A stretch of DNA of 64,000 nt from an uncultured Candidatus Saccharibacteria bacterium (GCA_964610335.1 CAZSVP010000001.1:223442-287441), one strand, 5' to 3'. Positions 5,840 through 64,000 are shown, counted from the first letter of the stretch. Notes: generated by a model from the sequence alone, not told the origin. Program-made: numbers and translations.

Positions 5840-5895
5840 AACACGATGACCGGCGTGGAGGCTCCCGAAGAAGCTCCCACACCGGCCTGGTCATC
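5840..5895 (+). terminator. Imperfect GC-rich stem-loop immediately after the NUDIX stop
   Basis: acgatgaccggcgtgg...ccacaccggcctggtcatcgt inverted repeat. Confidence 0.4.
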
Positions 5896-5899
5896 GTGA

Positions 5900-6181
5900 C
5901 TACTCGTCCTCTTCGCGCCCCCAGAGGAGCAGACCGACGTCGGCCGAAACCGAGCACCGATGTAGAGGAAGAGTATGAACATCGCGAAGATCCAGAGCCC
6001 AGTCAACCAGCCAGTATCCAAACGAGGTATGGCTACACAGCCAGCAACAGGTAAGACGGGCGTCCACGAACTCCACGACCCCAGCTACAGCCTCAGCCCA
6101 CCAAGGGACGTAGGCCACAGAGAGCTCGTATGAGTACGGCTCATCACCTTCGTGATGTTGATGTACAGACCACGTACGCAT
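5900..6181 (-). CDS. Small Trp/Cys-rich hypothetical ORF in a high-GC islet. Coding status uncertain
   Basis: 93-aa ORF downstream of the FMN reductase on the same strand. GC-rich, with a gaaagg-like RBS. Overlaps an alternative 62-aa TTG ORF at 5833..6021, so the frame assignment is uncertain. Confidence 0.25.
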   Translation of the reverse strand: MRTWSVHQHHEGDEPYSYELSVAYVPWWAEAVAGVVEFVDARLTCCWLCSHTSFGYWLVDWALDLRDVHTLPLHRCSVSADVGLLLWGREEDE

Positions 6182-6296
6182 GTTGGTGCCTTTCAGGCCG
6201 CCCTCCGGGGTGGAGGGCTAGAGCCTCTCAGGCGCGCCGTTCGATCCCATCTCGTCTCCTTTCGGTAGACAGTACGATGACAGCTAGATATTATTC

Positions 6297-6851
6297 CTAC
6301 AAACTGAGGTTGTCAACCAAGCTGTCGAGATCGCGCACCATGCCGGCTACCATGTCTGCCAAGTAAGTAGCTTCAGTCTTACCCATCTGATCAATCACAT
6401 CTTGAGCCTTGCCGATACTAATGGCTGTTGATAGTGAATGCATACCTAGGTGATTTACCACTGGGAGTAGATGTTCGATCACGCGAGCGCCACCGACTGG
6501 GCCGGTAGAATAACTTACAAACCCAACTGGTTTGTTGTACCACTCAGGGTATAGCCAATCCAGCCCATTCTTGAGTGCGGCAGGGTAGCCATGGTTGTAC
6601 TCGGCCGTAACTATGATGTAAGCATTACAGCTAGATACAGCTTCCGACCATTTTGTCACTTCGTCGTGGTTGTATTTCCGCTCGGCATTGTGTGGCTCAA
6701 CAGCCATATCAAGCAGGGGCAAGTCGTAGTCTTTGATATCAAGCACGGTATACTCGGTCTGTAGATTACCAAGCTCAGTAATCAACCATTGTGTTACTCG
6801 GTCAGCCAATCGCCCCTCACGCACACTTCCTACTATTATTCCTAAATTCAT
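6297..6851 (-). CDS. NADPH-dependent FMN reductase (flavodoxin-like fold)
   Basis: Start at MNLGIIVGSVREGR with a GGGAG RBS. Typical FMN_red family N-terminus. Confidence 0.75.
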   Translation of the reverse strand: MNLGIIVGSVREGRLADRVTQWLITELGNLQTEYTVLDIKDYDLPLLDMAVEPHNAERKYNHDEVTKWSEAVSSCNAYIIVTAEYNHGYPAALKNGLDWLYPEWYNKPVGFVSYSTGPVGGARVIEHLLPVVNHLGMHSLSTAISIGKAQDVIDQMGKTEATYLADMVAGMVRDLDSLVDNLSL

Positions 6852-6862
6852 ACTTACTCCCG

Positions 6863-7258
6863 TTAATTTGTAAATATTGTTCGAACCCATGCAATTGCAA
6901 ATAGTATGAACATAGGGCCGTGAACAATGACTCCTAGCCAGCTAATAAGCCCTTGCAATGCTGCCACTGTGAGAAACACTGCCAAGAAACCATGAAAGAA
7001 TGTGAGTGTTGCAATCGGGACTAACCACTTCTGATCGCGGCCAACTTTGCCGTACTCTATCACAGAGTAACCGCTAAGTAATGCCATACTAAGTGCCATT
7101 ACACCGACAATTCGAAACAGTATGGCTGGCTCCTGTGTATGCACAAGTGTTTGAAACATGCTCGGAGCTATTAGCAGTAGTGAGCCGAGTACTAGCTGTA
7201 CTGCAGTGTTGAGGTTTAGTGCATAGTATTCGTACTTATGGCTAAGCTGCATAAGCAT
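6863..7258 (-). CDS. Hypothetical integral membrane protein (4 TM)
   Basis: 131 aa and hydrophobic. Confidence 0.5.
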   Translation of the reverse strand: MLMQLSHKYEYYALNLNTAVQLVLGSLLLIAPSMFQTLVHTQEPAILFRIVGVMALSMALLSGYSVIEYGKVGRDQKWLVPIATLTFFHGFLAVFLTVAALQGLISWLGVIVHGPMFILFAIAWVRTIFTN

Positions 7259-8170: not shown

Positions 8171-9205
8171 CTAGTTTAAAGCTTCATTTATGTGTGCAGC
8201 AATTTTTTTGGCTTGACGTTGGCCTAGGGCATGGGTCTCTCCGGGGAGTAACTCCAGTCTTACTCGTTGGCGCATTACCTGACTGAGCTGTTGTTTGTAG
8301 AGCTTCATTATTGCTTCTGGGTTACTGATGCGGCTTTCTGTACCGTATATCAGTGTTATTTTGAGTCGTTCTTGGCTACCAAGCGCCATCATCATATCGT
8401 CTGCTAGATTACCCTTGGCCATTGCCCGGGTATAACTAAGGAAGTTGGTATCAAAGCCTTGACGGGCTAGTGATGCAAAGAATTTGATAGTATCTACAAT
8501 TGTGTCATTTTCTGTGTATCTAGGGTCGTGAGAAAGCTCGTTGTAACGCATCAGGTTTGGGTTCTCTCCCACAAAGTCCTTTGTTAGCCGAGCTAAGCTA
8601 CGATCCTCCATACCTGGTGGATCGATTAGTATAAGTGAATCTATATCTATGCCGTATCTGCTTGCATTGGCAGCGAGGCTTGCAGCTATGCGAGCTCCCA
8701 TGGAGGTACCCTCCAGACTAGCTCGATTTATTCCTTGTGTTTTTAGGGCTGATAACAAGGGGTTGGCAAGTGCTTCGAAACCACTGCCATGCTTCAACTC
8801 CTCGCGCTGCTCTTTTGAAAGTTTGTCACCGAATGCGCTAGTATTGGGGTTGTTTATTATCCACATCGGTCGGCCGGTCTGAATAGCAGTTTGTTCGGCC
8901 TCGTAGTTTGTACCTTCATGTTGGGTATTGATGCTCCAAGCTAGAGTCATAATAACGGGGTCGCCCTCCGCATCTCGATTGAGATGGAGGACCTCAAAAC
9001 TTTGACCTGTTTCAGGATCGGTTATAAGCATGGTATCTTCTAACTCGCGTTGCAGCTCAGCAGACGGTATCAACTCTTCGGCTGGTTTGAGATCAGTTTC
9101 AACTCCAGGCCTAAGCTGAAAATCGGGATTATTTCCGGTTATATTCAGGTTAAACTGTGCAATTGGATTTTGATCCATCGGAGTGTTTGGCTGCTTCTCA
9201 GACAT
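8171..9205 (-). CDS. Alpha/beta hydrolase family protein
   Basis: GTSMG nucleophile elbow. 344 aa. Confidence 0.6.
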   Translation of the reverse strand: MSEKQPNTPMDQNPIAQFNLNITGNNPDFQLRPGVETDLKPAEELIPSAELQRELEDTMLITDPETGQSFEVLHLNRDAEGDPVIMTLAWSINTQHEGTNYEAEQTAIQTGRPMWIINNPNTSAFGDKLSKEQREELKHGSGFEALANPLLSALKTQGINRASLEGTSMGARIAASLAANASRYGIDIDSLILIDPPGMEDRSLARLTKDFVGENPNLMRYNELSHDPRYTENDTIVDTIKFFASLARQGFDTNFLSYTRAMAKGNLADDMMMALGSQERLKITLIYGTESRISNPEAIMKLYKQQLSQVMRQRVRLELLPGETHALGQRQAKKIAAHINEALN

Positions 9206-9239
9206 AAGCATATTGTATCACGTGTGATATGATTGTCAG

Positions 9240-11278: not shown

Positions 11279-11920
11279 TTGAATATTCTAACATGGTTGT
11301 ATAATGCAGTTATGAGTAACGGCGAGGGCAGTGGCCCACATGATCCAACAGACCAAGACAAACCAACAGAGGGTGAACTTCGGGCTGCAGATGAATGGGA
11401 GGGGCGTGAACGGCGCATGGTAGAGGAATTGCACGACCAAGATGTTGCGCGCCTAGAAGCCGAGGAAGCACGCCAGCAGCAGGCAATTCTAGCACAACTC
11501 GATCAGGCAGACCAAGCAGTGGCCGATAGTATCGAAAGTGCACAACGAGATGCTGTACTAGCCGAGGAGGCACGACGGGATCAAGAAAAGCTACGACAAT
11601 TACGCAAAGAGCAACAGGGCATACGAGCTATGAAGTGGGAGCAAGAGCGTATGTTGCAAGAGCAACGGGAAATAATTGCAGAGCGATTTCGTAAATTGGT
11701 TGGTGGACAGGAGCCAAGTGAAATTGATGAAAACCTTCAATCAGATGATCCAGAAGTTAGAATGCGAGCGTATCGTGATATGGTTGATAAGATCCGGCTA
11801 AAGCAAGGGTTACCATTGAGAAGATCTAATGTAGACACCAGTAATTCTGAGCCTGAAGTGTCAAGTAATCGAGTAGATAAGCATCAAGCTATGAGAGACA
11901 GAGCAGCAGATAGTATTTAG
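11279..11920 (+). CDS. Hypothetical charged coiled-coil protein (E/R/Q-rich)
   Basis: 213 aa of low complexity with charged repeats. Confidence 0.45.
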   Translation: MNILTWLYNAVMSNGEGSGPHDPTDQDKPTEGELRAADEWEGRERRMVEELHDQDVARLEAEEARQQQAILAQLDQADQAVADSIESAQRDAVLAEEARRDQEKLRQLRKEQQGIRAMKWEQERMLQEQREIIAERFRKLVGGQEPSEIDENLQSDDPEVRMRAYRDMVDKIRLKQGLPLRRSNVDTSNSEPEVSSNRVDKHQAMRDRAADSI

Positions 11921-11933: not shown

Positions 11934-12413
11934 ATGGCAAAGCAACTTGAACTAGCGGATTTTGGAGGTGGGTGCTTTTGGGGAGTGGAAGAAGTTTTTC
12001 GCACAGCCAAGGGAGTAGTTAAGACCCAAGTAGGCTATGAGGGTGGCCATGTTGCCAATCCCACATATGAGCAAGTAAGTAGTCACACTACAGGTCACGC
12101 CGAAACAGTGCAAGTCTCGTTTGATCCTGACAAAATTAGCTACACAGAGTTACTAGACTTATTTTTTGACCATCACGATCCTACTCAGGTAAATGGGCAG
12201 GGTCCAGACATAGGTGAAAATTACCGTAGTGTGATATTCTACCGCAGCGACGAGCAAAAGAAGCAAGCTGAAGCTAAGATTGTCGAGCTTGATAAATCAG
12301 GTAAATTTAGCAAGCCAATAGCCACTATGGTAGTACCGGCTAGCAATTTTTGGTTAGCCGAAGATTATCATCAACAATATCTACATAAACGAAATCTTGA
12401 TGTTTGTTATTAA
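11934..12413 (+). CDS. msrA: Peptide methionine (S)-S-oxide reductase MsrA
   Basis: GGGCFWGVEEVF active-site motif. RBS aaggaggg. Confidence 0.85.
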   Translation: MAKQLELADFGGGCFWGVEEVFRTAKGVVKTQVGYEGGHVANPTYEQVSSHTTGHAETVQVSFDPDKISYTELLDLFFDHHDPTQVNGQGPDIGENYRSVIFYRSDEQKKQAEAKIVELDKSGKFSKPIATMVVPASNFWLAEDYHQQYLHKRNLDVCY

Positions 12414-13069
12414 CGACTGAGCTTGGTTAGTATCTCTAAGTCAAGCTCATCAAAACTATCAATAATCATGTCTGCCTCGTGCAGGTCTTCAACTGTATTG
12501 AAGCCGTTGTGGTAGCCCACAGCTGTCATGCCGGCAGCGTGGGCGGCAGCAATTCCAGATGCGGCGTCTTCTACTACCACACAATGGCTTGGTGAGATGC
12601 TAAGTTTATGAGCGGCTGTGAGGTATATATCGGGCGATGGCTTGCCATGGACTACATCATCAGCCGTAACAACCTCTTTGAAGAACGGTGTGAGCTGATT
12701 CTTGCGTAGTAACACCTTGGCAACAGAGCGTTTAGAACCTGTGGCCACGGCCATTGGTACACCTTGGTCATATAGTGAGCTAAGAAGTTGAGGAAGTTGC
12801 TTGCTCATGAGTAACTCATGCTTCTGGTAGTATAGGTCACGTTCTAATTTAATCTGGTTGGCAAGCTTGGTGTTGTCTATGTTGACTCCAAACTGGCTTT
12901 CAAACACCTTCACTACGTCGTCAAACTCCATGCCGAGTATTTGTTGGAAAGCATGCTTGGAGAGTTCTATACCACTCTCATGCAAGTAGCTATGCCATAG
13001 TTTGTAGTTGAACGGTATTGTGTCCACAAGTACACCGTCCATATCAAATATGACTGCTAGTTTCTTCAT
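12410..13069 (-). CDS. HAD-superfamily hydrolase (beta-phosphoglucomutase-like)
   Basis: DMDGVLVDT motif I. 219 aa. Confidence 0.8.
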   Translation of the reverse strand: MKKLAVIFDMDGVLVDTIPFNYKLWHSYLHESGIELSKHAFQQILGMEFDDVVKVFESQFGVNIDNTKLANQIKLERDLYYQKHELLMSKQLPQLLSSLYDQGVPMAVATGSKRSVAKVLLRKNQLTPFFKEVVTADDVVHGKPSPDIYLTAAHKLSISPSHCVVVEDAASGIAAAHAAGMTAVGYHNGFNTVEDLHEADMIIDSFDELDLEILTKLSR

Positions 13070-13178: not shown

Positions 13179-13574
13179 ATGCTACGAACCAAGTGTATCT
13201 TTGCCGAAGCTGAGCCCGATGACGGGTTGAGGATATCGGTGATGAGTCGGCACACGCTCGATGACGGGGTTACCCCAGACTTGCGCATCACTGTCGACTC
13301 GTTCGACTACCACTGGACGGTGTACGCGCCCAATCCTCAGTTGATCGGGAGCTACCTGCGCGACGAGGTCGACTGGACTGAATTTGACCAGCAATATCGC
13401 CAGGCGCAGCGCATGCCCGAACAAGTCGAGAAGCTCTGGACACTGATTCAGTGGGCAGAGGAGCGCAACATCACACTGCTGTGTAAGGAGGCCACTCCCG
13501 AACAGTGCCATCGTCGACTGTTAGCCGAAGAATGTCAGCTGCTCGACCCAACCCTGCAAGTCCATATCGCCTGA
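13179..13574 (+). CDS. DUF488 family protein (high-GC islet)
   Basis: The C-terminal ITLLCKEATPEQCHRRLLAEE matches the DUF488 signature. Strong RBS ggggagg and GC-rich codons. Confidence 0.55.
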   Translation: MLRTKCIFAEAEPDDGLRISVMSRHTLDDGVTPDLRITVDSFDYHWTVYAPNPQLIGSYLRDEVDWTEFDQQYRQAQRMPEQVEKLWTLIQWAEERNITLLCKEATPEQCHRRLLAEECQLLDPTLQVHIA

Positions 13575-13587
13575 AGGAGGCACCGCA

Positions 13588-13911
13588 ATGCCCGACATCA
13601 AACACCCTGGTCTATACAGTCTGTGGCTGTATGTTGACCGTGACAACGGTGCTCGTTTCACCTTCGTGGAGGTGACGGAGACCAGCACGTACGGTGCACC
13701 AGATGGCCATGTGGGAATGAAGTGGTACTCACTCAATGGTTGCACCGACAACCGAGAGTATGTGCACCGCGAAATTCCCGAAGAGATCCGGCGCCTCACC
13801 ATCGTCAAGTTCTGGCAGCTGGTGGATGAGCGCAAACTCATCTTCCTGAAGGAGCACCCTGGTGAGCACTTCGCGCCTGAGCCGATCTTGCAAGTCGGCG
13901 ACAAGGTCTGA
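13588..13911 (+). CDS. Hypothetical protein (high-GC islet)
   Basis: 107 aa. RBS aaggagg. No recognisable domain. Confidence 0.45.
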   Translation: MPDIKHPGLYSLWLYVDRDNGARFTFVEVTETSTYGAPDGHVGMKWYSLNGCTDNREYVHREIPEEIRRLTIVKFWQLVDERKLIFLKEHPGEHFAPEPILQVGDKV

Positions 13912-13927
13912 ACCCCAAGGACAACCC

Positions 13928-14086
13928 ATGCATGACCACCCCAACCCCTGTGAGAAGTGCAAGGAGCTCGGCGCGCCCACCGAGGGCATGACCAAGATGT
14001 GCCGTCACTGTGCCGGCAACTTCTGCTTCGGCCACATCACGGCTCACGAAGAGCAATGCGATGGGCCGATGAACCGCGACGACTGA
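13928..14086 (+). CDS. Small zinc-ribbon protein (high-GC islet)
   Basis: 52 aa from ATG 13928 (in frame with track ORF 13862..14086). Cys pattern CEKC...CRHC..C..H. Confidence 0.4.
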   Translation: MHDHPNPCEKCKELGAPTEGMTKMCRHCAGNFCFGHITAHEEQCDGPMNRDD

Positions 14087-19912: not shown

Positions 19913-20440
19913 ATGACCAGATCAAAAACTCATCACAACCAACATACGTGGCTATTTATTATTGTCGCTATCGTGTTAGTTGGTATTGTCGGTGCTTCTT
20001 TGTACTTTGTCACACAAAGCAAAAAACAACCAACTTACTTCTCAAGCAATGAGGTGAAGCTACTCGAGTTTGATAGTAGCACGGGACCAGTTAGCCCCGA
20101 GTACCAAGAGAGTAAGACTCTGATAATCACTCCTACTACATGTAGCTATACATTTACGAAGATACAGCCACAGAGTACAACTACAACAAGTTGTGTCATG
20201 ACTGAAACTATTTGGAATACTATTGTAGGGGATTTTGAAAGTAACAAGGTCAAATCAATCTTGGAATCAGCGCCTCAAAGTTCTGATCTTTTAGGTGGGC
20301 CACAAAAGCAGTTCACTGCAGTTTACGCCAATGGTGATACTTATAAAGCATTTATAAATGATTCTGTAAAAGAAAAGCTGCAAAGCTTCTTACAACAAGT
20401 TCAAGCTCAAGTACCAGATCTTAGTAACATTAGTTACTAG
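19913..20440 (+). CDS. Hypothetical membrane-anchored protein
   Basis: 175 aa with an N-terminal TM helix. Confidence 0.45.
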   Translation: MTRSKTHHNQHTWLFIIVAIVLVGIVGASLYFVTQSKKQPTYFSSNEVKLLEFDSSTGPVSPEYQESKTLIITPTTCSYTFTKIQPQSTTTTSCVMTETIWNTIVGDFESNKVKSILESAPQSSDLLGGPQKQFTAVYANGDTYKAFINDSVKEKLQSFLQQVQAQVPDLSNISY

Positions 20441-21506
20441 TTTTGGCCGACATCTTGCGTGATTTACTACCATTCTTGTAGTGCGGCAGGTTTGCATCGA
20501 GCAGTTCGTTGATAACTATTTGGGCTACTCCCACCAGTGGAACTGCAATAAGTGCGCCTAATACTCCAGCCAATGCGCTACCAATAATTACTGCAATAAA
20601 ACTAAGAAGTGGTGAAATATAGACCATTTTCTTGTATATGACAGGCGCTAGAACGTTGTTTTCTATTTGTTGGTAAACAATCAAGAACAAAATTGCTGGC
20701 AAGACTAGTTGAGGCGCGGTTAGGCCAAGAATAATAGCAACTATAATAGCACCAATCCCGGCTCCTACCAGTGGGATTAGATCACAAATAGCCACTACAA
20801 CTGATAATACAAAGGCAAATGGCGCATTGATCAACAACATAAACAGAAGCGTAGTCGAACCAGCAATTCCCGATATCAAGAAGTTGCCACCAATATAGCG
20901 AGCTATCACGCTTGTAGTGTGATCTGCAAGCTCGGCATAGTAACTCCTGGTTTTTGGGTACAGCGTGGCCTTGAGGAAGTTAGCAATTTTTGCACCTTCC
21001 AGTAGGAAGAAGAAACTCAATCCAATCATCATGCCTAGAGATACTAGGTTACTACTAATTTGTTTAAGTAGACTAAACAGTGAGGAACTGAGGGTAGCTA
21101 TTCCTCCAATTATCATTTGCTTGCTGGAAGAATCAATATTACTACTTAGTATGTTATTGATACTTTTTCCTATCCCACTATCGGATTGTAAAAAACTATC
21201 CAGTGTTGTGGGAAGATTTTGGGCTAGTTGACCCGCTTGGCCTACCAGTGGTGCCAATACAACTGCAATCAGAAACAGGCTAACTGCAATTACAATCGCA
21301 TAAGTGCACAAAGTTGCCAGAAGCCTACTATTACGAGGCATCCTAGGGAGTAGCCAATCAGTAATTGGGTTGAGAACAACGGCAAGAAAGGCTGCAAGGG
21401 TTATCATCCCGATTTGAGCTCGAAGTTTCCAGAATAAAAAGCCACCAACCACAAATATGGTGACAATTAACAAATATTTAGTAAAGTCTCGAAGTTTGAG
21501 AGGCAT
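20430..21506 (-). CDS. AI-2E family transporter (UPF0118)
   Basis: 358 aa, multi-TM, family-typical topology. Confidence 0.7.
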   Translation of the reverse strand: MPLKLRDFTKYLLIVTIFVVGGFLFWKLRAQIGMITLAAFLAVVLNPITDWLLPRMPRNSRLLATLCTYAIVIAVSLFLIAVVLAPLVGQAGQLAQNLPTTLDSFLQSDSGIGKSINNILSSNIDSSSKQMIIGGIATLSSSLFSLLKQISSNLVSLGMMIGLSFFFLLEGAKIANFLKATLYPKTRSYYAELADHTTSVIARYIGGNFLISGIAGSTTLLFMLLINAPFAFVLSVVVAICDLIPLVGAGIGAIIVAIILGLTAPQLVLPAILFLIVYQQIENNVLAPVIYKKMVYISPLLSFIAVIIGSALAGVLGALIAVPLVGVAQIVINELLDANLPHYKNGSKSRKMSAKTSN

Positions 21507-21553
21507 TTGCGATATTATAAACTAATAGTATGAAAAGTCAATATTAATAGCTA

Positions 21554-46146: not shown

Positions 46147-46247
46147 CGGGTATCCCTTCTTGTCGTGATTGTCGAGGTGTTCGCAAACCCAAAAAAATCC
46201 AGATTCGCGATCTGGCCAACTATACCATAATTTGTTCAACTTGTCTA

Positions 46248-46299
46248 CTCTCCCAAAACGTTCAAACCTTGAACACTTTGGGAGAACGACAACCAACTG
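46248..46299. repeat. Stem-loop element CTCTCCCAAAACGTTCAA-ACC-TTGAACACTTTGGGAGAACGACAACCAACTG (copy 2)
   Basis: 15-bp imperfect inverted repeat. Shares its 5-prime CTCTCCCAAAA and 3-prime GGGAGARCGACAAYCA with the copy at 45104. Confidence 0.5.
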
Positions 46300-46370
46300 T
46301 TGTGTCCTCGCCCGGCCAGTATCTTATCGCGGCCGGTATGGGGGATGTTAGCAGTACTTTCTTGTTTCTG

Positions 46371-47078: not shown

Positions 47079-47115
47079 CTTGATACTTCTGTCTTGATAC
47101 TTAATACTTGATAGC
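47079..47115 (+). promoter_or_regulatory. 2.6 tandem copies of CTTGATACTT with 14-bp period, forming a TTGATA-N17-AATACT-N7-ATG leaderless-type promoter for fpg
   Basis: Read directly: cttgatacttctgt / cttgatacttaata / cttgatagc, then ATG. Confidence 0.45.
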
Positions 47116-49264: not shown

Positions 49265-49492
49265 GTGTTTAGCTTGGTGCCATCCGAAGAAGGTGTTGTC
49301 CCGGCCCATTTCAGTTTTTACTACCAAGGAGAACTGGCAGGAGTGATCAACGTACTGGGGCACGGTGTTTACGATGCAATAGCACATGGCGATGGGCTAC
49401 CAGTTCAACTCAACCAAGACGGGCCAGTCACTCTTAGTGAAGCCCGACAACTGTTGCAAGTCTGGGCGACAGGACACAGTCGACAGAAGTAG
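49265..49492 (+). CDS. Hypothetical small protein (high-GC islet)
   Basis: GTG start preceded by ggaggggaggg. About 75 aa. Confidence 0.35.
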   Translation: MFSLVPSEEGVVPAHFSFYYQGELAGVINVLGHGVYDAIAHGDGLPVQLNQDGPVTLSEARQLLQVWATGHSRQK

Positions 49493-49500
49493 GGCTCGGG

Positions 49501-49530
49501 GAAGGACCTCCGGGTCCTTTCTCATTTAGC
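49501..49530 (+). terminator. GC-rich hairpin aggacc-tccg-ggtcct followed by a T-rich tail
   Basis: Read directly. Confidence 0.4.
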
Positions 49531-49609
49531 CTATGCTTGTAGTGATTGATTAAACCAGGCATTATTAGTAAGACCAATCATCCGTCAAAGTCACCAAGGA
49601 GGTGTAATA

Positions 49610-49936
49610 GTGCACGGATGGAGTACCAAATACAAAGCCGATGAGCCACACAGTTTCCAGTTGCACCTTCTCAATCGGTGCCAGACTGACGGGAGAGATC
49701 GACACGACGGCTGTGTGGTAGAGATGGAGCAAACTGGTCGTTTCTACCCCATGACATCATGGGGCTACATGCTGCCAGACGACTCGTGGTTGGAGGGGCC
49801 AGATGCCTTGGCTGTAGCCAAGCAACTGGTGGAGAAGGCACATCAGGCGACTTGTGATGGCCTGACAGAATCGGAAGCGGTGGAATTTGCCCTTCAAGTC
49901 GTTGCTCACGAGCCGCACCAAAACGCATCCAAGTAA
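49610..49936 (+). CDS. Hypothetical protein (high-GC islet)
   Basis: GTG start with an aggaggtg RBS. 108 aa. Confidence 0.4.
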   Translation: MHGWSTKYKADEPHSFQLHLLNRCQTDGRDRHDGCVVEMEQTGRFYPMTSWGYMLPDDSWLEGPDALAVAKQLVEKAHQATCDGLTESEAVEFALQVVAHEPHQNASK

Positions 49937-49972
49937 CAACCAGCTATGCAATGCTGGTCAGTGAATGAGGTT

Positions 49973-50009
49973 CGAGAAGGGGTCCTTCTCGGGCCTCTTC
50001 TTGTTTTTT
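49973..50009 (+). terminator. Rho-independent terminator cgagaagg-ggt-ccttctcg followed by a T-run
   Basis: Read directly. Confidence 0.55.
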
Positions 50010-50070: not shown

Positions 50071-50361
50071 TCAAGCTATTTTTGGGTATAGGTCTTGGTA
50101 ATTTGGGTTATCTTTCTCTATAAGTTCTTGTTTCCAGGATCTATGCCATCGCTTCAATTTCTTTTCCCTAAGAATTGCATTCTTAGGGTCATCAAAAACC
50201 TCAAGATATACCAACTTTGTGACATTGTATTTATCTGTAAAACCCTCGACAAGGTGGTTTTTGTGTTCGTAAGTACGACGGACAAGATTGCTTGTGATAC
50301 CAACGTACAAAACAGAATTTCTAGAGTTGGAAAGAATATAGACGTAATAGTTTTTCTTCAT
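50071..50361 (-). CDS. GIY-YIG nuclease family protein (UPF0213-like)
   Basis: YVYIL..VLYVGIT.NL.RR..EH motifs. 96 aa. Confidence 0.75.
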   Translation of the reverse strand: MKKNYYVYILSNSRNSVLYVGITSNLVRRTYEHKNHLVEGFTDKYNVTKLVYLEVFDDPKNAILREKKLKRWHRSWKQELIEKDNPNYQDLYPKIA

Positions 50362-50758: not shown

Positions 50759-50879
50759 AGGGCTCATCATAGCTTATTTACCCTGGTTTGTAAAGGGTTT
50801 TGCAGTGATGTCGCAATGGTACTATACTGTCCATAAGCTTTTGTGAGCTTGGAAGTACAAAGTAGTGGAGCCTTCTTGG

Positions 50880-51900
50880 CTCAGTTGATCACGAAACGCA
50901 CTTCCGGGTGTTGTTCACAATCAAGCTTGCCTGCTGTGCCCCCGCGTCGAGCGGGGATAGATCCGAAGCAGTAGGTACCGCACCGCGACAACGTTGAAAG
51001 GGGGTATCCATGGTCGCCATCCGTGGATCCACCGCAGCCGTCGCTTCCATCACCGCAGCCAAGAAGAAGAGCTGCACCGGGAGCGCCCGTCCCTGATCCG
51101 CCCGACGACAACCAGGGGGAACCTCATGGTTCGTGACCGCGCATCGCCTGCGTGATCTGTAGGCTCCGGCCTGCAAACCGGCCGCTCCGGCGGTCCACAG
51201 GTGCACTGGGTGCCTCAAGGGGAAAATGGTAAGTAGGTGCTTGCACCGACGCCTCACCAGCCCGCAAGACCAGGCCCAATACCAGCCTGGCACATTCGAG
51301 CCGCACTCACAGCGGCATGTGCCGGCGAGCCCCAGGGTTCGCCGGCACAGCTCGTTATTATCGACAAATTGGTGTTTTTGCGCTATATTTCGGCTACGGC
51401 TCTTTTGCAACTGAAAGCGGTAGGGAAAGCAATCTGATGGGATCGAGCACCTATTAGAAACGCAATCCCAAACCACGATTTACTAGTGCCTGATCACTTA
51501 CTTCCCTACATAGTAAGTGATGATGCGCGGCATCGCGTCCGTGTGGGTAGCTTCATATGTTTGTTGAGGGGTCCGCCGCCGCCGGATCGCGCTCCAGGCC
51601 TCTATGTAGTGTAGCTAGTAAGTCGCAGTTGCAACTGCCAAGACCAGATCGAGTGTCGGTAGGGAGCTGCTATACCCTACAGAAGTGAGACGAGCGGACA
51701 CGTGATGTTGTCTGACTCAGAGCATCCCAAAGCTCGCAGTCTCACCGATCGACTGGCATGCCCTCCGTGTAGCCGGAGGCAGATGCATGTGGTTCTATTG
51801 GGCCTCACCACCGCTGCATCATGATACCAAGGCTCATAATCGTGCCCTTAGTGTCAAACCTCGCCACCCGTAGCCGTCGGGTGGCGTTGTCCGTTATTAT
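50880..51900. other. About 1 kb GC-rich, hairpin-dense segment with no credible ORF. Candidate structured RNA or decayed foreign DNA
   Basis: No ORF of 60 aa or more in any frame across 51480-51940. The only long ORF (50889..51476, minus strand) translates to implausible composition. Many perfect hairpins are present, including ggcacat..gccgc-actcaca-gcggc..atgtgcc, gccggcga-N10-tcgccggc, atcacttact-N9-agtaagtgat and gcagttgcaactgc. Confidence 0.35.
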
Positions 51901-51939
51901 GTTGAAATGTTTTGACAGTAGTGGTAGTATAGGCACGAT

Positions 51940-52716
51940 ATGCAGATACTCGAATTAGCAGCCAAATTACAATCGATCGGATTGAGCGACAAACAGGCCA
52001 AGGTCTATGTAGCCGCTCTTTTTTTGGGCCCCAATTCAGCCCAGAAGATCTCCCAACAAGCCGATGTCAATCGCGCTACCACCTATGTAATACTCGAGGA
52101 ATTGATGGAGATGGGCTTAATTAGCCAAAGCTCAGTGGGTAAGAAGACTGTGTTTGTCGCCGAGGGCGCCGATGCCATCGATCGCCACATCGAGTCGGTC
52201 AAGAAAGAACTCGAGGCCCAACAACAAGAGCTCAAGACGATTGCCCCGGAACTTGAATCAATTGCCCGCAAAGATTCTGCTTCGGCTCCTCAAGTGTTTT
52301 TCTTCAAGGGCAAAGAGGGTATTGAACAGATCAACAGCTACTACTTCAAGAATAGTAAGCCCAAATCTACTAGCTATATATTCTCTGATCGAGACAAGGT
52401 TAAAGAAATTATTCCGCATGCTTTTGAGCAGCACAAAGCTAATCGCAAAGCCAAACAGATTGCGTCGCGTGGAATAGCATACGATTCTACAGGTGAGTTG
52501 GTCAACGTTAAGTCAGAGAAGAAAGAGCGCAAGCTAGTCGACATTCGTCCGGCCGCTGAGATCACTATGCAAGAAGACTTTGTGATGTTTGCCACTTACA
52601 ATACTCATGAGCATGTTAGTGTAGTACTGGAAAGTCCCGAGATTGCTGAGGCTTTGCGACAGATATTTGATCTTGCTTGGCAGGGTCTTCCAGCCACCAA
52701 GAAGTCAAAAAAATAA
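51940..52716 (+). CDS. TrmB family transcriptional regulator
   Basis: N-terminal wHTH (LGLSDKQAKVYVAALFLGPNSAQKIS...VNRATTYVILEELMEMGLI) and a C-terminal TrmB-like domain. Confidence 0.7.
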   Translation: MQILELAAKLQSIGLSDKQAKVYVAALFLGPNSAQKISQQADVNRATTYVILEELMEMGLISQSSVGKKTVFVAEGADAIDRHIESVKKELEAQQQELKTIAPELESIARKDSASAPQVFFFKGKEGIEQINSYYFKNSKPKSTSYIFSDRDKVKEIIPHAFEQHKANRKAKQIASRGIAYDSTGELVNVKSEKKERKLVDIRPAAEITMQEDFVMFATYNTHEHVSVVLESPEIAEALRQIFDLAWQGLPATKKSKK

Positions 52717-53157
52717 CACCTTGATTAGGTGTTATCTTTATAATAATTGCTCATACATCGATGTCTGCAGTAAATAGCAGCCCCAAAACATCGAGACCTC
52801 CGAGGCTCCAACGAATGTACGTCAGAGCAGTGAGGGTGTTTTTAGTATCCATCTGGGGATGGATTTGAGTCACTTGTTAGGTGATCTAATCACAGATGCA
52901 GTTAATCAGTCGTCAGCGCCCATGGTGGGCCCCTTTCGGTCTGAATAAACCAGCATAGTGACTGCGCTACTAGGTGGTAGCGTGCACTTGGCAGATCACG
53001 CAGCGGACAGGGACGGTGGTACTTCGGTTGTTGTGGTACATTTGAACGTCTCCCGGTGTCGGGTGGATGTGACTGTGACCAAAAGCATTGGCTTAAAGTC
53101 ACCTATATCATAACTCTTTGCATTATTTTGTCAATATTTATCGACATAAACGGAAGC

Positions 53158-53184
53158 GACCCTAGCCCAGTTAGGGCTAGGGTC
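53158..53184 (-). terminator. Hairpin gaccctagccc-agtta-gggctagggtc downstream of the Cys-rich gene
   Basis: Read directly. Confidence 0.45.
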
Positions 53185-53263
53185 GTGACCCCATGTACTC
53201 GCTTTTGGTAAAACGAGCTGCAAGAGACACATGGCTTCCTTGGACGGCTAGAGCTGATCAGGC

Positions 53264-53887
53264 TCAGTGCCCATTGCACCAGCCGTTGTTGCAGTTGCTG
53301 CACTTGCCACATCCGCTCTCGGAGTGTGAGCAACCGCTGGCCAGGATCTGGGCGACCTCGCGATTGGCGCCGTTGATGCCGGCCACCTGTAGCTCTGCTT
53401 CGTTGCTCACGCAGTTGAGTTCCGCAGAGGGTGCTGAACGTGAGCACTTGCCGTCGTTGCCACCACCACCTCGTGCGTCGCAGAAGGCGGTGGCCGTCCA
53501 CAACACGGGGTTGTAGCTGATGCCGTGCTTGTCCATGAAGGCAGTGGTGTCGCCGATGGTCATGCCGGAGCTGGGTTGCATTGGGTTGTCGGCTGGCTCG
53601 TGGTGGATGAACCGTCCGGCCACGCGCTGGCAGAAGCCGGCGTAGGCCTTGGTGTACAGGATGAAGGTGTGCCAACCGATGTCGACCGGCTTGCTTGGCG
53701 CGAAGTTCTGGTCGGGGTAGTCGGCGCACATCTTCAGGAACCCGAGGGCTCCATCGATGATCAGCTCAGCGGCTTCGCGGGTGACGCCTTCGTCGTCGAC
53801 CACGCGGTTGGCTAGCCGGTCGTAGAGGACCGGATGCACCAGCTCGCTGATAGGTGGGGTGGCCGTGATGGCCTCGTTGGTAAGCAT
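53264..53887 (-). CDS. Hypothetical 207-aa protein with a Cys/Gly/Ser/Asn-rich C-terminal tail (high-GC islet)
   Basis: Start MLTNEAI with an aggaga RBS (the track ORF extends to 53929). Ten Cys in the last 75 aa, ending GCSHSESGCGKCSNCNNGWCNGH. Confidence 0.5.
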   Translation of the reverse strand: MLTNEAITATPPISELVHPVLYDRLANRVVDDEGVTREAAELIIDGALGFLKMCADYPDQNFAPSKPVDIGWHTFILYTKAYAGFCQRVAGRFIHHEPADNPMQPSSGMTIGDTTAFMDKHGISYNPVLWTATAFCDARGGGGNDGKCSRSAPSAELNCVSNEAELQVAGINGANREVAQILASGCSHSESGCGKCSNCNNGWCNGH

Positions 53888-53980
53888 GATGCTCTCCTGG
53901 GGGTGTCTCTTGCTTGTGGGTGAACACACAAACTGTCATGTATCATCAACAGTATGTGATATGCGTATAATATAGTATCT

Positions 53981-54018
53981 TATACTATTTTGTCAATAAC
54001 TATTGACAAAATAGTATA
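53981..54018. promoter_or_regulatory. Perfect 18-2-18 bp palindrome (T)ATACTATTTTGTCAATA-AC-TATTGACAAAATAGTAT(A) containing back-to-back TTGACA -35 boxes of divergent promoters
   Basis: Read directly. Downstream -10 candidates are TAACAT on the plus side and TATTAT on the minus side. A related half-site TATTTTGTCAATA lies at 53124-53136. Confidence 0.55.
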
Positions 54019-54097
54019 CAACGCGTAACATACAGTTATCACTTTGGTAAATCCTTGGTGACCAGTCTCAACCTTTACATCGAAAAGAGGTAGCACA

Positions 54098-54190
54098 GTG
54101 CGAGACAGACCAGTCCTGGCAGAACCGCTGCCGTCTCCCACATCTCCACCGACAGATCCCGCAACCCCCGAAGATATTCCTTGGAAGTAG
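54098..54190 (+). CDS. 30-aa Pro-rich peptide ORF
   Basis: GTG start after aagagg. VRDRPVLAEPLPSPTSPPTDPATPEDIPWK. Coding status uncertain. Confidence 0.3.
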   Translation: MRDRPVLAEPLPSPTSPPTDPATPEDIPWK

Positions 54191-54231
54191 TATCCAAGAC
54201 ACTTCGGCCGACTACATAGAGAGGAGGGGAC

Positions 54232-54324
54232 ATGTCAGGAGGCGACAACGCCGATTCGGCGAACAGCACCGGCGGCAGCCAGAGCGGCAGCCAGCAGGGC
54301 AACGACACCGGTTGGGGCAAGTGA
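54232..54324 (+). CDS. 30-aa Gly/Ser/Asn-rich peptide ORF
   Basis: Strong RBS gaggagggg 4 nt upstream of the ATG. MSGGDNADSANSTGGSQSGSQQGNDTGWGK. Confidence 0.35.
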   Translation: MSGGDNADSANSTGGSQSGSQQGNDTGWGK

Positions 54325-55610: not shown

Positions 55611-55865
55611 ATGACACATCCGGATCAGATCCGAATCAACGAATGGTGGCTAGCCGAAGGGCTCGGCGCCAGCGCCGACATCGGCTTGGCCGCCACACCT
55701 CGTGGTTCCAACCATTCGATGATGGTGGCAGATCGTGAGCGGGGCATCAAGTCCACCGCGGCTGCCAAAGCCGAGCTCGTCGCCGACGGTCTCATCGACG
55801 AGGCCGGCCGGCTCACCACCAAGGCCAAGGAGATGGGTCTGCGCATGCCGGAGCGACACCGGTAG
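55611..55865 (+). CDS. Hypothetical small protein (high-GC islet)
   Basis: 84 aa with an aggagggg RBS. Confidence 0.4.
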   Translation: MTHPDQIRINEWWLAEGLGASADIGLAATPRGSNHSMMVADRERGIKSTAAAKAELVADGLIDEAGRLTTKAKEMGLRMPERHR

Positions 55866-56073
55866 CAGAACACTTCTCAAGAGTACCTGCATGAGAGCCC
55901 TCCGACCCACCAAACCAAGTGGCTCGGAGCAGCTCCCAGACCAATCATATTGGTTGGCCTAGGAGCTGAACGAAGTTCAGCTATTGCTCCTTGCAATATA
56001 TTTGTGTTCGTCGATTTGTTTACAAACTGTAAGCAGTTTGACGGACACAAAACTACTGAAAGGAAAGACCGTC

Positions 56074-56640
56074 ATGCATACCGTTACATGGGTTGTAGTG
56101 GCGGTTTTTCCGCTCATCTTCTTGGCACTACAACTGGTGATTGGAGTTCGCTCCAAGACTCCACGTGCCGACGAGAAGTATCCAGCAGTACCGGCGGAAA
56201 TGATCCTGAGGATGTGTGCGCTGACATTCATGGTGCAATACATCACCTCAGGCAAGCCGTGGATAGGCGTGGAAATGCCTGCCGCGGTAGAACTCTTGGG
56301 TATCGGGGTGATCGTGGCAGGACTTATCTGGCTGATCCGTGCTCAGACGGTTCTGGGTCGTAACTGGGTGCCAGGTGTGGGGCTTCACAAGAAGCACCAA
56401 CTGGTGACAGACGGTCCATACCGAAGGGTGCGGCATCCGATCTACTCAGCGCTGGGGTTGTCCGTGATCGGGCTAGCCATAGCGTCAGGTGATCTGATGA
56501 TGTTGTTTGGTGGTGCCTGCCTCTTCGCGGCTCTTGCTGTCAGGATTCCTCACGAGGAAGCTCTGATGGCCAAGAAGTTCAAGAAGAAGTGGGATCGCTA
56601 CGCAGCAGCCACGCCGGCAGTGATTCCTCGGTGGAGGTGA
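56074..56640 (+). CDS. Isoprenylcysteine carboxyl methyltransferase (ICMT/PEMT-like) family membrane methyltransferase
   Basis: QLVTDGPYRRVRHPIYSALG motif, 5 TM. Start taken at the internal Met of track ORF 55984..56640. Confidence 0.65.
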   Translation: MHTVTWVVVAVFPLIFLALQLVIGVRSKTPRADEKYPAVPAEMILRMCALTFMVQYITSGKPWIGVEMPAAVELLGIGVIVAGLIWLIRAQTVLGRNWVPGVGLHKKHQLVTDGPYRRVRHPIYSALGLSVIGLAIASGDLMMLFGGACLFAALAVRIPHEEALMAKKFKKKWDRYAAATPAVIPRWR

Positions 56641-56808
56641 GACAAGCAAGGAGCGCCGGGGACTGCATCCGCTATCCAGCGGAATGTGGTCCTCACAGCT
56701 CCCGAGTTTCGAACACACATTCGAGATTCAGGAGCTGGAGAAATTTCAGCAAGCATTTTTACAATCTAAATAATCAGCCCACCACAACCACGCCATCAGG
56801 AGGCAACT

Positions 56809-57222
56809 ATGGGTATCAACTATGCAGTGAGTGACCTGGGTGATGCAGACGGCCTGATCGACGGCCCGATCGATCAGCGCACCATCGACCTCGCCGAGGC
56901 GCTCAAGATGTTCGTCGAGATCACGAACGACATGGGTGCGAACCTCTTCGTCAACATCATCCACGTCGACGAGGCCAGGGTGATGGTCTACTACAACTAC
57001 TACCTCGGCACGTCCCCGTCGTCGAATCCCATGCAACTGCGCGTCATCAACCCCTTCGGCTTCTTCTACCAGTTCGAGAAGGACCCAGAGGACAACCTCG
57101 ACACGTTCGACAAGTTCGTGTTCGCGGTGTCGTGCATCGTCAAGGCGGTGCCGTGGATCTGCTCCCAGCAGGTGCTGCGGCGTGTCGTTGGCGGCGACAA
57201 GCTGGCCTACCAGCCGGCCTGA
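56809..57222 (+). CDS. Hypothetical protein (high-GC islet)
   Basis: 137 aa with a ggagg RBS and very GC-rich third positions. Confidence 0.45.
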   Translation: MGINYAVSDLGDADGLIDGPIDQRTIDLAEALKMFVEITNDMGANLFVNIIHVDEARVMVYYNYYLGTSPSSNPMQLRVINPFGFFYQFEKDPEDNLDTFDKFVFAVSCIVKAVPWICSQQVLRRVVGGDKLAYQPA

Positions 57223-63455: not shown

Positions 63456-63500
63456 CTTAGTCTATGAATCATGACGATCACAAAGTAATCGGGGTAGAAA

Positions 63501-63758
63501 ATGATTGATGGCATCACCATACTTGGGCTGGTAGCTACCTTGTTTATCATTAGCGCGCAAATCCCACAGATATATAAAAGCTACATAACCAAAAGCACTG
63601 GTGATCTGTCGTTGTGGATGATCCTGTGGCTAATTACAGGCGTTGGTTTGTGGTTGCTATATGGGTTATTGCGTCCAGACTATGTAATAGTTATCTCCAA
63701 TACGCTTGGTGAGATAGCTTTGATAACCTTGTTGGCACTCAAGCTCAAATACAAGTAA
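63501..63758 (+). CDS. SemiSWEET (PQ-loop) sugar transporter, 85 aa
   Basis: IPQIYKSYITKSTGDLS PQ motif, 3 TM, C-terminal LKYK. Confidence 0.65.
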   Translation: MIDGITILGLVATLFIISAQIPQIYKSYITKSTGDLSLWMILWLITGVGLWLLYGLLRPDYVIVISNTLGEIALITLLALKLKYK

Positions 63759-63764
63759 ATATAG

Positions 63765-63793
63765 TTGACATATCAGGTATATTATGCTATTAT
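63765..63793 (+). promoter_or_regulatory. Consensus-like sigma-70 promoter TTGACA-N17-TATTAT
   Basis: Read directly, upstream of the GC-rich partial ORF at the window end. Confidence 0.45.
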
Positions 63794-63845
63794 AGTGCAA
63801 CTTCGAGAAGTCCTCGGAGAGAAGGCCAACAGGGAGGTTACTCAA

Positions 63846-64000
63846 TTGGCCAGCTCACATTACTATCCCGACAACGGCCCAGTGCCGGTTCGGATCCCGG
63901 GCACCCGGGAATGGACGTTGCGCGAGATCGAGCGTGATGCCAGGCGCTGCACCCAGTGCAAGGCTCGGCCACGCACGCTCTACTCGTACGACGACAGCTG
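63846..64000 (+). CDS. Partial GC-rich ORF at the window edge (start of another high-GC islet)
   Basis: Open frame to the window end. A TTG start lies 8 nt after agggagg. Hand-derived. Confidence 0.3.
   Translation, partial: MASSHYYPDNGPVPVRIPGTREWTLREIERDARRCTQCKARPRTLYSYDDS

Follow-up and report, generated by a model that had tools for sequence, protein, structure and literature searches.

The 64,000-nucleotide stretch of DNA analysed here, called the window throughout (GCA_964610335.1 CAZSVP010000001.1:223442-287441, from an uncultured Candidatus Saccharibacteria bacterium), contains twelve short islets rich in guanine plus cytosine (GC), most of them holding small genes, which are inserted between the housekeeping genes of an AT-richer backbone. 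The islets measure 0.3-1.9 kb each, lie within 58 kb and take up about 19% of the DNA; beside the small genes they also hold long GC-rich stretches without a called gene. Ordinary intergenic spacers are shorter than 150 bp and AT-rich (GC 0.21-0.43). Among species-representative genomes, 573 relatives of the window's Fpg protein were found, almost all of them with the label Candidatus Saccharibacteria or Saccharimonadales, and therefore the backbone of candidate phyla radiation (CPR) type recognised in the initial annotation is confirmed; judged by this sequence relationship, the window is part of an environmental (soil) Saccharimonadales chromosome of about 45% GC. The gene calls used are those stored with the Logan assembly of run SRR14932608, which is 100% identical to the window.

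Twelve islets had been proposed from inspection of the sequence, and the computed base composition agrees: each of the 12 segments is elevated in GC (0.51-0.60; pooled 0.552 against 0.450 in the remaining window), and a log-odds segmentation finds the same segments again with scores of 17-43 nats, where 17 nats in 64 kb correspond to a chance expectation of about 64000*e^-17, or approximately 3e-3. The weakest are the islets at 28.1-29.16 kb (GC 0.518) and 48.95-50.06 kb (GC 0.512). Their contents, with product lengths in amino acids (aa), and the one nuclease-type open reading frame (ORF) of the region are as follows.

Islet 1, 5840-6290, minus strand, GC 0.59: an uncalled 93-aa gene (5900-6181, minus) without a Pfam match.
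Islet 2, 13179-14086, plus strand: a three-gene operon of a DUF488 gene (13179-13574, 131 aa), a 107-aa orphan (13588-13911) and a 52-aa gene (13928-14086).
Islet 3, 26796-27379, plus strand: 81-aa (26796-27041) and 77-aa (27038-27271) genes with an ATGA overlap, and a 27-aa ORF (27296-27379) led by a Shine-Dalgarno (SD) sequence.
Islet 4, 28497-29098, plus strand: a 58-aa ORF (28497-28673) whose product has a hydrophobic segment and CxxC pairs, and a 120-aa orphan (28736-29098) with 0.75 GC at third codon positions (GC3).
Islet 5, 31554-32015, plus strand: a 153-aa orphan with a GTG start, a GGAGG ribosome-binding site (RBS) and a TGA stop.
Islet 6, 38043-38695, plus strand: 118-aa and 99-aa genes with a GTGA overlap, directly upstream of the dnaG promoter.
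Islet 7, 45193-46949, minus strand, in the polA-fpg gap: genes of 61 aa (45193-45378), 125 aa (45375-45752), 49 aa (45761-45910), 79 aa (45907-46146) and 192 aa (46371-46949).
Islet 8, 49265-49936, plus strand: 75-aa and 108-aa genes, both with a GTG start and a GGAGG/AGGAGG RBS.
Islet 9, 50835-51893, plus strand: a non-coding conserved element, GC up to 0.66, with a conserved core at 50960-51860.
Islet 10, 52779-54324, minus strand: a PF27765 gene (53264-53887, 207 aa, GC3 0.82), a non-coding part (52779-53100, minus) and a 30-aa ORF (54232-54324, plus).
Islet 11, 55611-57222, plus strand: an 84-aa orphan (55611-55865), a gene for an ICMT/PEMT-family membrane methyltransferase (56074-56640, 188 aa) and a 137-aa orphan (56809-57222, GC3 0.89).
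Islet 12, 63790-64000, no strand assigned, GC 0.60: cut by the window end.
Outside the islets, 50071-50361, minus strand: an uncalled 96-aa ORF with a GIY-YIG nuclease domain (Pfam PF01541, E = 4e-19; GC 0.37).

The compositional difference extends to all three codon positions. GC3 is 0.47-0.89 in islet genes and 0.33-0.56 in backbone genes (medians 0.66 and 0.42, Mann-Whitney p = 1e-9), so that the GC-rich third positions ascribed to islet genes are real and the computed GC/GC3 profile of the window is not uniform. Median GC1 is 0.61 against 0.54 and median GC2 0.44 against 0.37; pooled GC1/GC2/GC3 amount to 0.60/0.44/0.68 in 18 islet genes and 0.55/0.38/0.43 in 56 backbone genes. Arginine is favoured in the islets, Lys/(Lys+Arg) being 0.36 there and 0.61 in backbone genes. 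Since GC1, GC2 and Lys/Arg usage shift together with GC3, the islet genes fit a long residence in a genome of about 60% GC or more, and a purely local process at synonymous sites does not easily account for them. Two further GC peaks were considered as islets and rejected because they reflect amino-acid composition. The one at 36.75-37.3 kb encodes a Pro/Ala-rich protein with high GC2, and the one at 41.9-42.2 kb an Ala/Arg-rich ORF with a GC3 of 0.41 and a leaderless promoter, located in a gap of constant size across Saccharibacteria. The protein underlying the first peak (36707-37954, plus strand, 415 aa; peak at 36756-37275) consists of a Pro/Ala/Gln-rich N-terminal region, which forms the 61% GC peak with a C-over-G skew of -0.36, followed by a transmembrane segment and a globular C-terminal part.

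For comparison we used relatives obtained from different sources, namely L084 (JGI), L090 and L091 (ENA), L087 and L152 (Logan), L002 (MFD) and L085 (NCBI); backbone nucleotide identity among the close relatives is 77-91%. L002 is the closest relative, and its backbone synonymous sites are saturated relative to the window (pS 0.63-0.83). L152, which covers the first half of the window, was found via a DUF488 search of the representatives; a metagenome scan with the LytR-family protein returned only relatives at no more than 39% identity for this half. L002 (CAVPRT010000011.1, a 218-kb contig) shows clear Saccharibacteria synteny and is deposited in a metagenome-assembled genome (MAG) labelled Acidimicrobiales (Actinomycetota), which is probably mis-binning and, if driven by co-abundance, could hint at an actinobacterial host. 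Other loci carry similarly odd labels (L019, Verrucomicrobiia; L038, Limnocylindrales).

Islet and backbone genes further differ in their start, stop and promoter signals. A strong SD sequence (GGAGG/AGGAG at correct spacing) precedes 11 of the 19 islet genes and 6 of the 58 backbone genes (Fisher 7e-5; random background 2.8%). TGA is the stop codon in 13/19 and 7/58, respectively (p = 6e-6), with backbone genes ending mostly in TAA or TAG, and GTG the start codon in 5/19 and 1/58 (p = 0.003). Stop/start overlaps of the ATGA/GTGA type occur at 27038, 38396 and 45375, and very stable hairpins follow islet genes; the AGGAGG-like RBS, GTG starts, overlaps and terminator-like hairpins listed in the initial annotation are thus all present. 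A TATAAT-like -10 box (TAnnnT) ending 6-9 nt before the start codon was found in 23 of 44 backbone genes that open transcription units (background 6%, p = 4e-17) and in none of 14 islet genes (Fisher 3e-4). A -10 box so placed is the sequence signature of leaderless mRNAs, and backbone genes opening transcription units would accordingly be mostly leaderless, without an SD sequence; examples of the leaderless type lie at 42235-42260 (polA), 11290-11314, 20430-21530 (minus) and 29169-30720 (minus). The same division recurs in the relatives L085, L087, L090, L152 and L089, where the -10 box is present in 26/52 low-GC3 and 0/22 high-GC3 genes (Fisher 9e-6) and a strong SD in 6/52 and 12/22, respectively (Fisher 2e-4). 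Literature searches gave no description of such leaderless-type backbone signals for Saccharibacteria. Sequence prediction in the 45-58 kb region yields 27 promoter-like sites with 11 expected, and 24 terminator-like sites with 11.6 expected. Because the leaderless/SD split is nearly perfect, gene callers trained on one class will miss the other, and the gene caller used for this assembly indeed overlooked several real small genes as well as a nuclease. The uncalled islet ORFs are 5900-6181 (minus, 93 aa), 13928-14086 (52 aa), 27296-27379 (27 aa), 28497-28673 (58 aa), 45761-45910 (minus, 49 aa) and 54232-54324 (30 aa), among which 27296-27379, 28497-28673 and 45761-45910 (minus) are further SD-led micro-ORFs.

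Most islet ORFs are real genes under purifying selection, because dN/dS relative to L002 is 0.04-0.37 for the seven ORFs compared and mismatches fall on third codon positions. Islet 1 is 96% identical to L152 at the nucleotide level, with mismatches by codon position of 1/1/9 and two amino acid changes, and the 52-aa Cys/His-rich micro-protein gene of islet 2 is conserved, with mismatches of 4/1/9. In islet 2, GC3 is 0.70 in the DUF488 and 107-aa genes, which have AGGAGG/GGAGG RBS and TGA stops; the 107-aa gene was considered as a duplicate of the neighbouring DUF488 gene, which was rejected (BLASTP E = 0.2). Islet 3 is 99.7% identical to the independent contig L084, islet 4 is collinear in L084, and the 153-aa product of islet 5 has 99.3% amino acid identity there; GC elevation is weak in the stretch upstream of islet 4 (28.1-28.5 kb). 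Relative to L002, the 99-aa gene of islet 6 has 71% amino acid identity with dN/dS 0.17, the islet 7 genes (GC3 0.57-0.77) have dN/dS 0.19-0.37, and the two islet 8 genes 0.13 and 0.04; terminator-like hairpins lie at 49491-49518 and 49967-50003 in islet 8. Strong hairpins also appeared in a folding scan that covered islets only, with no matched backbone control, at 45960-46380 (minus, islet 7; z = -7.7) and 55860-56090 (islet 11; z = -8.7); islet 12, 72.5% identical to L087, has a plus-strand fold z of -5.4. The 137-aa product of islet 11 gave a confident AlphaFold (AF2) model (pLDDT 79.5, pTM 0.75), for which a fold search against PDB returned no significant match. The claim that islet products are small proteins of 27-210 aa is thus mostly correct (27-207 aa), and fails for the islet at 50.88-51.9 kb, which has no credible small gene.

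On inspection of the translations, the 81-aa and 77-aa products of islet 3 carry Cys pairs after a hydrophobic N-terminal segment, and 27296-27379 encodes a short hydrophobic peptide. The products of 26796-27041, 27038-27271 and 28497-28673 share this layout, an N-terminal hydrophobic helix and then CxxC-type Cys pairs, at 31-36% identity; they resemble a membrane-anchored zinc ribbon and may form a small paralogous family. In the 192-aa protein of islet 7, an N-terminal hydrophobic segment and Cys residues suggest, by inspection, a signal peptide. The 30-aa ORF of islet 10 is divergent to the PF27765 gene, rich in Gly, Ser, Asn and Gln, and identical at 29/30 positions in L090, where it is called.

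Islet 9 does not fit the expectation of small genes in every islet and is non-coding and RNA-like. The called 195-aa ORF 50889-51476 was rejected as a gene (dN/dS 0.68): GC periodicity across the islet is weak and frame-shifting, mismatches to L002 have no codon phase, and there are indels of 1, 2, 4, 9 and 20 nt. The islet is 79.5% identical to its L002 counterpart, with blocks of 85-90%, although neutral sites are saturated between the two. Consensus folding of the plus strand with RNAalifold gives -292.7 kcal/mol compared with -228 +/- 8 for re-folded column shuffles (z = -7.9) and 17 compensatory pairs compared with 6.9 +/- 2.7 (maximum 11); the minus strand is weaker (z = -3.6, 12 pairs vs 8). 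A separate pair-count tool finds 17 pairs vs 8.5 +/- 2.1, and 0-2 with slid partners, a control that is circular because the structure derives from the same two sequences. A promoter-like site (50799-50828) lies on one side of the element and a hairpin (51878-51893) on the other. It is present in the window and L002 and absent from the close relative L090, which has 144 bp instead of about 1.1 kb. An Rfam 15 covariance-model search of 50780-51950 gave only chance-level matches at E<=10, and two conserved motifs of the islet had no matches in IMG/VR. We regard islet 9 as a candidate new structured RNA of approximately 0.9-1 kb on the plus strand, of which two sequences are at hand and whose covariation does not establish the structure.

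The PF27765 gene of islet 10 lies between flanks (52778-53227 and 54128-54307) that are 91-98% identical to L090, lack codon periodicity and are more conserved than the adjacent coding DNA; the second contains the 30-aa ORF, and the first has a minus-strand fold z of -6.3. Within the first, the convergent trmB-like and PF27765 genes are separated by an element of about 0.32 kb (52779-53134, minus), framed by the promoter-like site TTGACA-16-TATGAT (53134-53107) and, on the other side, by a terminator-like hairpin (52798-52779); only its promoter-proximal part can be aligned in the L087 lineage (L142). Palindromic TTGACA promoter sites flank the PF27765 gene at 53124-53149 and 53986-54011; these perfect palindromes, TTGTCAATA..TATTGACAA, each carry TTGACA on both strands. 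A tRNA scan and an Rfam scan (gathering score, E<=1) of the whole window returned nothing, and the islets are therefore not known RNA genes.

Comparison of gene order places the islets between conserved genes. The order dnaG-rpoD-polA-fpg-holA-rpsT-(DHH-like gene)-truB-rpsO is kept in dozens of Saccharibacteria, and the islets of the window occupy the polA-fpg, holA-rpsT, rpsT-trmB, trmB-DHH and DHH-truB gaps, which measure 1.2-2.0 kb compared with 14-484 bp in the compact genomes L007 and L012. Backbone proteins match 29-80 of 80 fetched Saccharibacteria loci; islet proteins match only L002 (sometimes L003) or none of them. Other lineages have minimal gaps, or variable inserts in the same gaps but with backbone-like GC (the polA-fpg gap elsewhere in Saccharibacteria has unrelated content), and inserts 6-8 GC points above the backbone are confined to the clade of the window (window, L002, L090, L087, L085, partly L004 and L006). 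The proposed position of the islets between conserved backbone genes, their restriction to a lineage and their variability among close relatives are thereby borne out.

Among close relatives, islets differ by gain, loss or exchange of whole gene-sized units. L087 has an unrelated 119-aa gene in place of the ICMT gene. The genes fpg and holA, which share an ATGA overlap in the window, are separated in L090 and L002 by a GC-rich GDSL-lipase cassette equipped with an AT-rich upstream region, an RBS and a predicted terminator of its own; L090, L002 and L085 have additional GDSL-lipase and NUDIX cassettes. L152 precisely lacks the 107-aa gene (13588-13911), the missing unit being 340 bp that extend from the start codon ATG of this gene to that of the following ORF; the breakpoints show 4-nt microhomology (ATGC), and both ends of the unit carry an imperfect direct repeat (TGCAAGTC...TGA...AAGGA). 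What had been suspected to be an unrecognised insertion mechanism is thus, where the junction can be read, a clean gene-sized indel with 4-nt microhomology. NUDIX genes of backbone-like GC also vary in presence (window 5425-5838, plus, after a 508-aa gene; L090 14716-15135 and L085 192-623, after polA), so gene-sized turnover is not limited to GC-rich cargo.

Tests for known mobile elements were negative. Blastn and tblastx self-comparison and a repeat finder detected no sequence or terminal repeats common to the islets, which are therefore not one family of mobile elements. In agreement with the initial annotation, neither the precomputed Pfam lists nor further Pfam scans of the window contain an integrase or transposase domain. 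A tRNA scan and a repeat search found no tRNA target, flanking direct repeats or att-like repeats at islets, and an integron test revealed no conserved inverted-repeat family (attC) at cassette ends and no IntI. Phage structural and replication genes are missing, the PHROG matches being to two families of unknown function only. The overlapping pairs 26796/27038, 38043/38396 and 45193/45375 belong to no toxin, antitoxin or defence family in Pfam, NCBIfam or PADLOC. The region's only nuclease or mobility-type gene is the GIY-YIG ORF, in an AT-rich patch between islet 8 and rpsT, outside the islets; because of it, the statement that there is no mobility-type gene is not strictly true. In L085, GIY-YIG homologues flank truB (12192-12488 and 13186-13473).

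When about 25 islet ORFs were searched against Pfam, PHROGs, NCBIfam and PADLOC, only DUF488, ICMT, PF27765 and GIY-YIG were recovered, and the proteins of islets 4 and 6 matched no family. Most islet products indeed have no recognisable domain, as had been noted, except that three families, DUF488, ICMT/PEMT and PF27765, can be assigned among the islet genes; DUF488 weakly matches the PADLOC candidate systems PDC-M45/M19. The clearest link to other taxa comes from the 207-aa product, which matches PF27765 (UCP032817-like, 'glycine-rich domain-containing protein'), as do all of its 107 homologues. The named homologues are nearly all from Actinomycetota (Streptomyces, Amycolatopsis, Actinomadura, Micromonospora, Mycobacterium; 40-54% identity), and a few belong to Saccharimonadales or to MAGs without classification. 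Of seven IMG/VR loci with PF27765, on predicted viral or prophage contigs, six have 65-71% GC, and in L089, with a backbone of 34% GC, the gene again stands out as a GC-rich alien of 50% GC. The C-terminal tail of the protein in the window, about 50 aa long, is rich in Cys (…CSHSESGCGKCSNCNNGWCNGH); homologues typical of actinobacteria are shorter, approximately 156 aa. One homologue (57% GC) lies at 5001-5399 of L145 (IMGVR_UViG_3300021406_000019), a predicted viral contig of 47% GC with dense small ORFs, which could be a CPR phage or a misclassified CPR fragment; here, too, a GC-rich gene sits in AT-richer surroundings. For DUF488 and ICMT, tblastn against plasmids gave distant matches only, without actinobacterial bias, and the members found for the DUF488 subfamily carried no organism names. 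The gene for the 137-aa protein, which has no IMG/VR matches, lies upstream of truB wherever its context was retrieved (L085, L086, L087), with GC3 of 0.79-0.84 in L085 and L087.

A second line of evidence on origin comes from polarised substitutions. When window and L087 are compared and L090 serves as outgroup, there are 121 AT-to-GC and 114 GC-to-AT changes in the backbone, compared with 30 and 57 at all sites and 8 and 27 at third positions of orf84 and orf137. This GC-to-AT excess in the two most GC-rich genes is the signature of amelioration, for which it provides moderate evidence; the test is conservative because parsimony errors in GC-rich DNA bias towards AT-to-GC.

Collectively, these observations suggest, with somewhat better than an even chance in our estimate, that the islets are moron-like cassettes acquired by horizontal transfer from a gene pool richer in GC (about 60% GC or more), and that they entered without an integrase and were retained by selection. 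Morons, as reportedly defined by Hendrix and colleagues, are autonomous promoter-gene-terminator units located between phage backbone genes and often deviant in GC. The high-GC donor envisaged in the initial annotation (actinobacterial host, phage or plasmid) is thus favoured by composition, signals and PF27765, and set against it are the donor, which was not found, and the lack of homologues outside the clade for most islet proteins; the best candidates would be Actinomycetota, known hosts of cultivated Saccharibacteria, or their phages. Under this reading, DNA may have entered by natural transformation, because Saccharibacteria are naturally competent (PMC10633639), and its integration may have relied on illegitimate recombination at microhomologies, or on related strains exchanging the core genes on either side by homologous recombination. 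Vertical inheritance with slow amelioration would have followed, with selection on SD-led structured mRNAs possibly holding GC high. The islets are not recent strain-specific imports, given that many are syntenic in relatives with saturated backbone synonymous sites and are under purifying selection.

Several results weigh against acquisition from such a pool. The donor sequence was not found, and identity to the actinobacterial PF27765 proteins is only 40-54%; approximately 15 islet ORFs matched no family at all in the four database searches; and of 5.8 billion proteins only 10 belong to the 137-aa family, not one of them from Actinomycetota. A second, more divergent trio (window, L090; outgroup L002) gave 34 vs 33 changes for orf125, orf79 and orf108, with no GC decay, so that both trios combined yield 64 vs 90 (p = 0.04; contrast with backbone p = 0.08). 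Orthologous islet genes keep a GC3 of 0.79-0.89 in lineages with saturated backbone synonymous sites, and GC3 decay is therefore slower than simple neutral amelioration predicts. Only one junction, that of the 107-aa gene, can be read at base resolution, no competence (com) genes lie within the window, and hosts of soil Saccharimonadales are not established.

Some of these points fit better with a rival that we judge rather improbable, in which the islets are an endogenous, clade-specific class of genes or RNAs whose GC is kept up by selection (stability or structure of SD-led mRNAs, codon choice in genes for small secreted or membrane proteins, RNA structure) or by GC-biased gene conversion in gaps prone to recombination. 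The 137-aa orthologues remain in this GC3 range across saturated lineages with synonymous divergence below that of flanking genes, orf125, orf79 and orf108 show no decay, most families are orphans confined to the clade, and some islet DNA is conserved, non-coding and structured. An endogenous class does not readily explain why GC1, GC2 and Lys/Arg usage are shifted as well, why stop codons, start codons and initiation mode differ as a package, why the actinobacterial PF27765 appears as a GC-rich alien in two unrelated low-GC genomes, or why the most GC-rich genes show a GC-to-AT excess. GC-biased conversion in bacteria, moreover, usually shifts GC3 by a few percent, compared with about 25-45 points here, which counts against it. 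This rival nevertheless keeps appreciable weight because very high GC3 persists across saturated divergence, and a mixed history, foreign origin plus selection or bias keeping GC high, is likely.

It is less probable still that the islets are cargo of an unrecognised mobile system, be it phage or plasmid remnants, integron-like cassettes or capture at breaks made by homing-type GIY-YIG endonucleases. The moron-like architecture, with candidate promoter-gene-terminator units between backbone genes, would fit such cargo, as would the GIY-YIG ORF adjoining islet 8, the two that flank truB beside islets in L085, and the PF27765 homologues in predicted viral contigs. The missing phage structural and replication genes, PHROG matches restricted to families of unknown function, and the lack of an integrase, attC-like repeat or inter-islet repeat argue against it, as does the absence of the 137-aa gene and the RNA-element motifs from IMG/VR; the GIY-YIG genes themselves are AT-rich like the backbone and not consistently beside islets.

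We find it very unlikely that the GC-rich stretches are mainly structured non-coding RNAs, comparable to the GC-rich intergenic regions of AT-rich genomes, in which ORFs arise merely because stop codons are scarce. Conservation without coding capacity, together with good folding, is seen in islet 9 and in parts of islet 10, and GC-rich DNA does give spurious ORFs such as the 195-aa call; codon-position-specific divergence, dN/dS well below 1, SD sequences at correct spacing, one confident protein fold and the lack of Rfam matches speak against it. As a general explanation it is refuted by dN/dS and codon periodicity, and it stands only for islet 9 and the PF27765 flanks. That another organism's GC-rich reads were joined into a CPR contig can be dismissed with near certainty, for although the Acidimicrobiales label of L002 shows that binning errors happen, no support for a chimera was found and the same junctions recur, identical or homologous, in assemblies made independently by different sequencing projects on different samples (L084, with 99.4% identity over three islets; L090/L091, L087/L152, L002 and L085).

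The phenomenon is a variant of known horizontally transferred islets and morons rather than a new kind of element. In the model of Lawrence and Ochman, horizontally acquired islands are said to be known by an atypical composition that ameliorates, and the islets resemble genomic islands in their atypical GC and codon usage, position between core genes, patchy distribution, richness in ORFans and some GC-to-AT decay. They differ from classical ones in their size of 0.3-1.9 kb with 1-5 micro-genes, in their number (12 in 58 kb) and in lacking a tRNA target, integrase, direct repeats or mobility genes; and, unlike typical islands, many are old and syntenic across saturated species, yet still GC-rich. 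Like morons, they consist of a gene or small operon between genes that are adjacent in relatives, with promoter-like sites, RBS, a terminator-like hairpin, a composition unlike that of the neighbouring genes and clean gene-sized boundaries, but the backbone here is made of chromosomal housekeeping genes (dnaG, rpoD, polA, fpg, holA, rpsT, truB, rpsO, pnp) without nearby phage genes. Mixed leaderless and SD-led initiation is known from Actinobacteria and Deinococcus ('group C' in GeneMarkS-2). As in group C genomes, leaderless-type and SD-led genes coexist in the window; unlike in these, the two modes, as predicted from sequence, are split almost perfectly by composition into core and GC-rich accessory genes. 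Large bacterial non-coding RNAs such as OLE, GOLLD and ROOL were found as long GC-rich intergenic regions. Islet 9 is similarly long, GC-rich, intergenic, conserved and patchy, with many predicted helices, compensatory changes and strand bias; unlike them, it has no Rfam family match and is represented by two sequences only. The natural competence of Saccharibacteria depends on comEC, and those in cultivation are epibiotic on Actinobacteria (PMC10633639); islands of horizontal transfer have been reported in Patescibacteria genomes, mostly larger, IslandViewer-type islands from transfers between Patescibacteria (PMC12455944). Host-to-epibiont transfer (PMC10633639, PMC12455944) concerns the same recipient group, and the dense micro-cassettes described here are smaller than IslandViewer-type islands. 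Literature searches gave no description of dense micro-cassettes, a leaderless/SD partition, the absence of integration machinery or the large RNA-like element.

More tentatively, and as a proposal that is doubtful in its full form, one soil-Saccharibacteria clade might maintain two gene-expression systems: a leaderless, AT-richer core, and a flexible layer of dozens of SD-led, GC-rich micro-cassettes with micro-proteins and at least one new structured RNA of about 1 kb, continually captured from actinobacterial hosts or their phages via competence and without an integrase. The difference would be kept by selection, for example for separate regulation of host-interaction genes. For the way in which tiny-genome, host-dwelling CPR bacteria gain functions, this locus offers a testable picture, in which nearly every gap of a housekeeping region is filled by GC-rich, gene-sized pieces that are recombinase-free, selected and exchanged among relatives. 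Were the donors actinobacterial hosts, the association of uncultured lineages with their hosts would be recorded in the islets, which would also provide a pool of candidate host-interaction micro-proteins. A leaderless core together with SD-led accessory genes also poses the problem of how a single ribosome handles the two modes, and the GC-rich element of about 1 kb is a candidate for a new large non-coding RNA.

Finally, two observations concern the backbone itself. Upstream of dnaG (38786-38824) and fpg (47080-47118) we noticed the arrangement TTGATA-N17-(G/A)ATACT-N7-ATG, which recurs with a 6-nt spacer upstream of holA in L002 (approximately 11665-11705). The word TGATACTT is repeated 2-3 times at these three promoters, each of which belongs to the first backbone gene after an islet, and the design may represent a shared regulator site for DNA replication and repair genes. 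In addition, the gene at 8171-9211 (minus) is stored with its start at 9178, and an ATG at 9211 is preceded, 6 nt upstream, by TACAAT; the true start is therefore probably this leaderless one, giving a protein of 346 aa instead of 335 aa.

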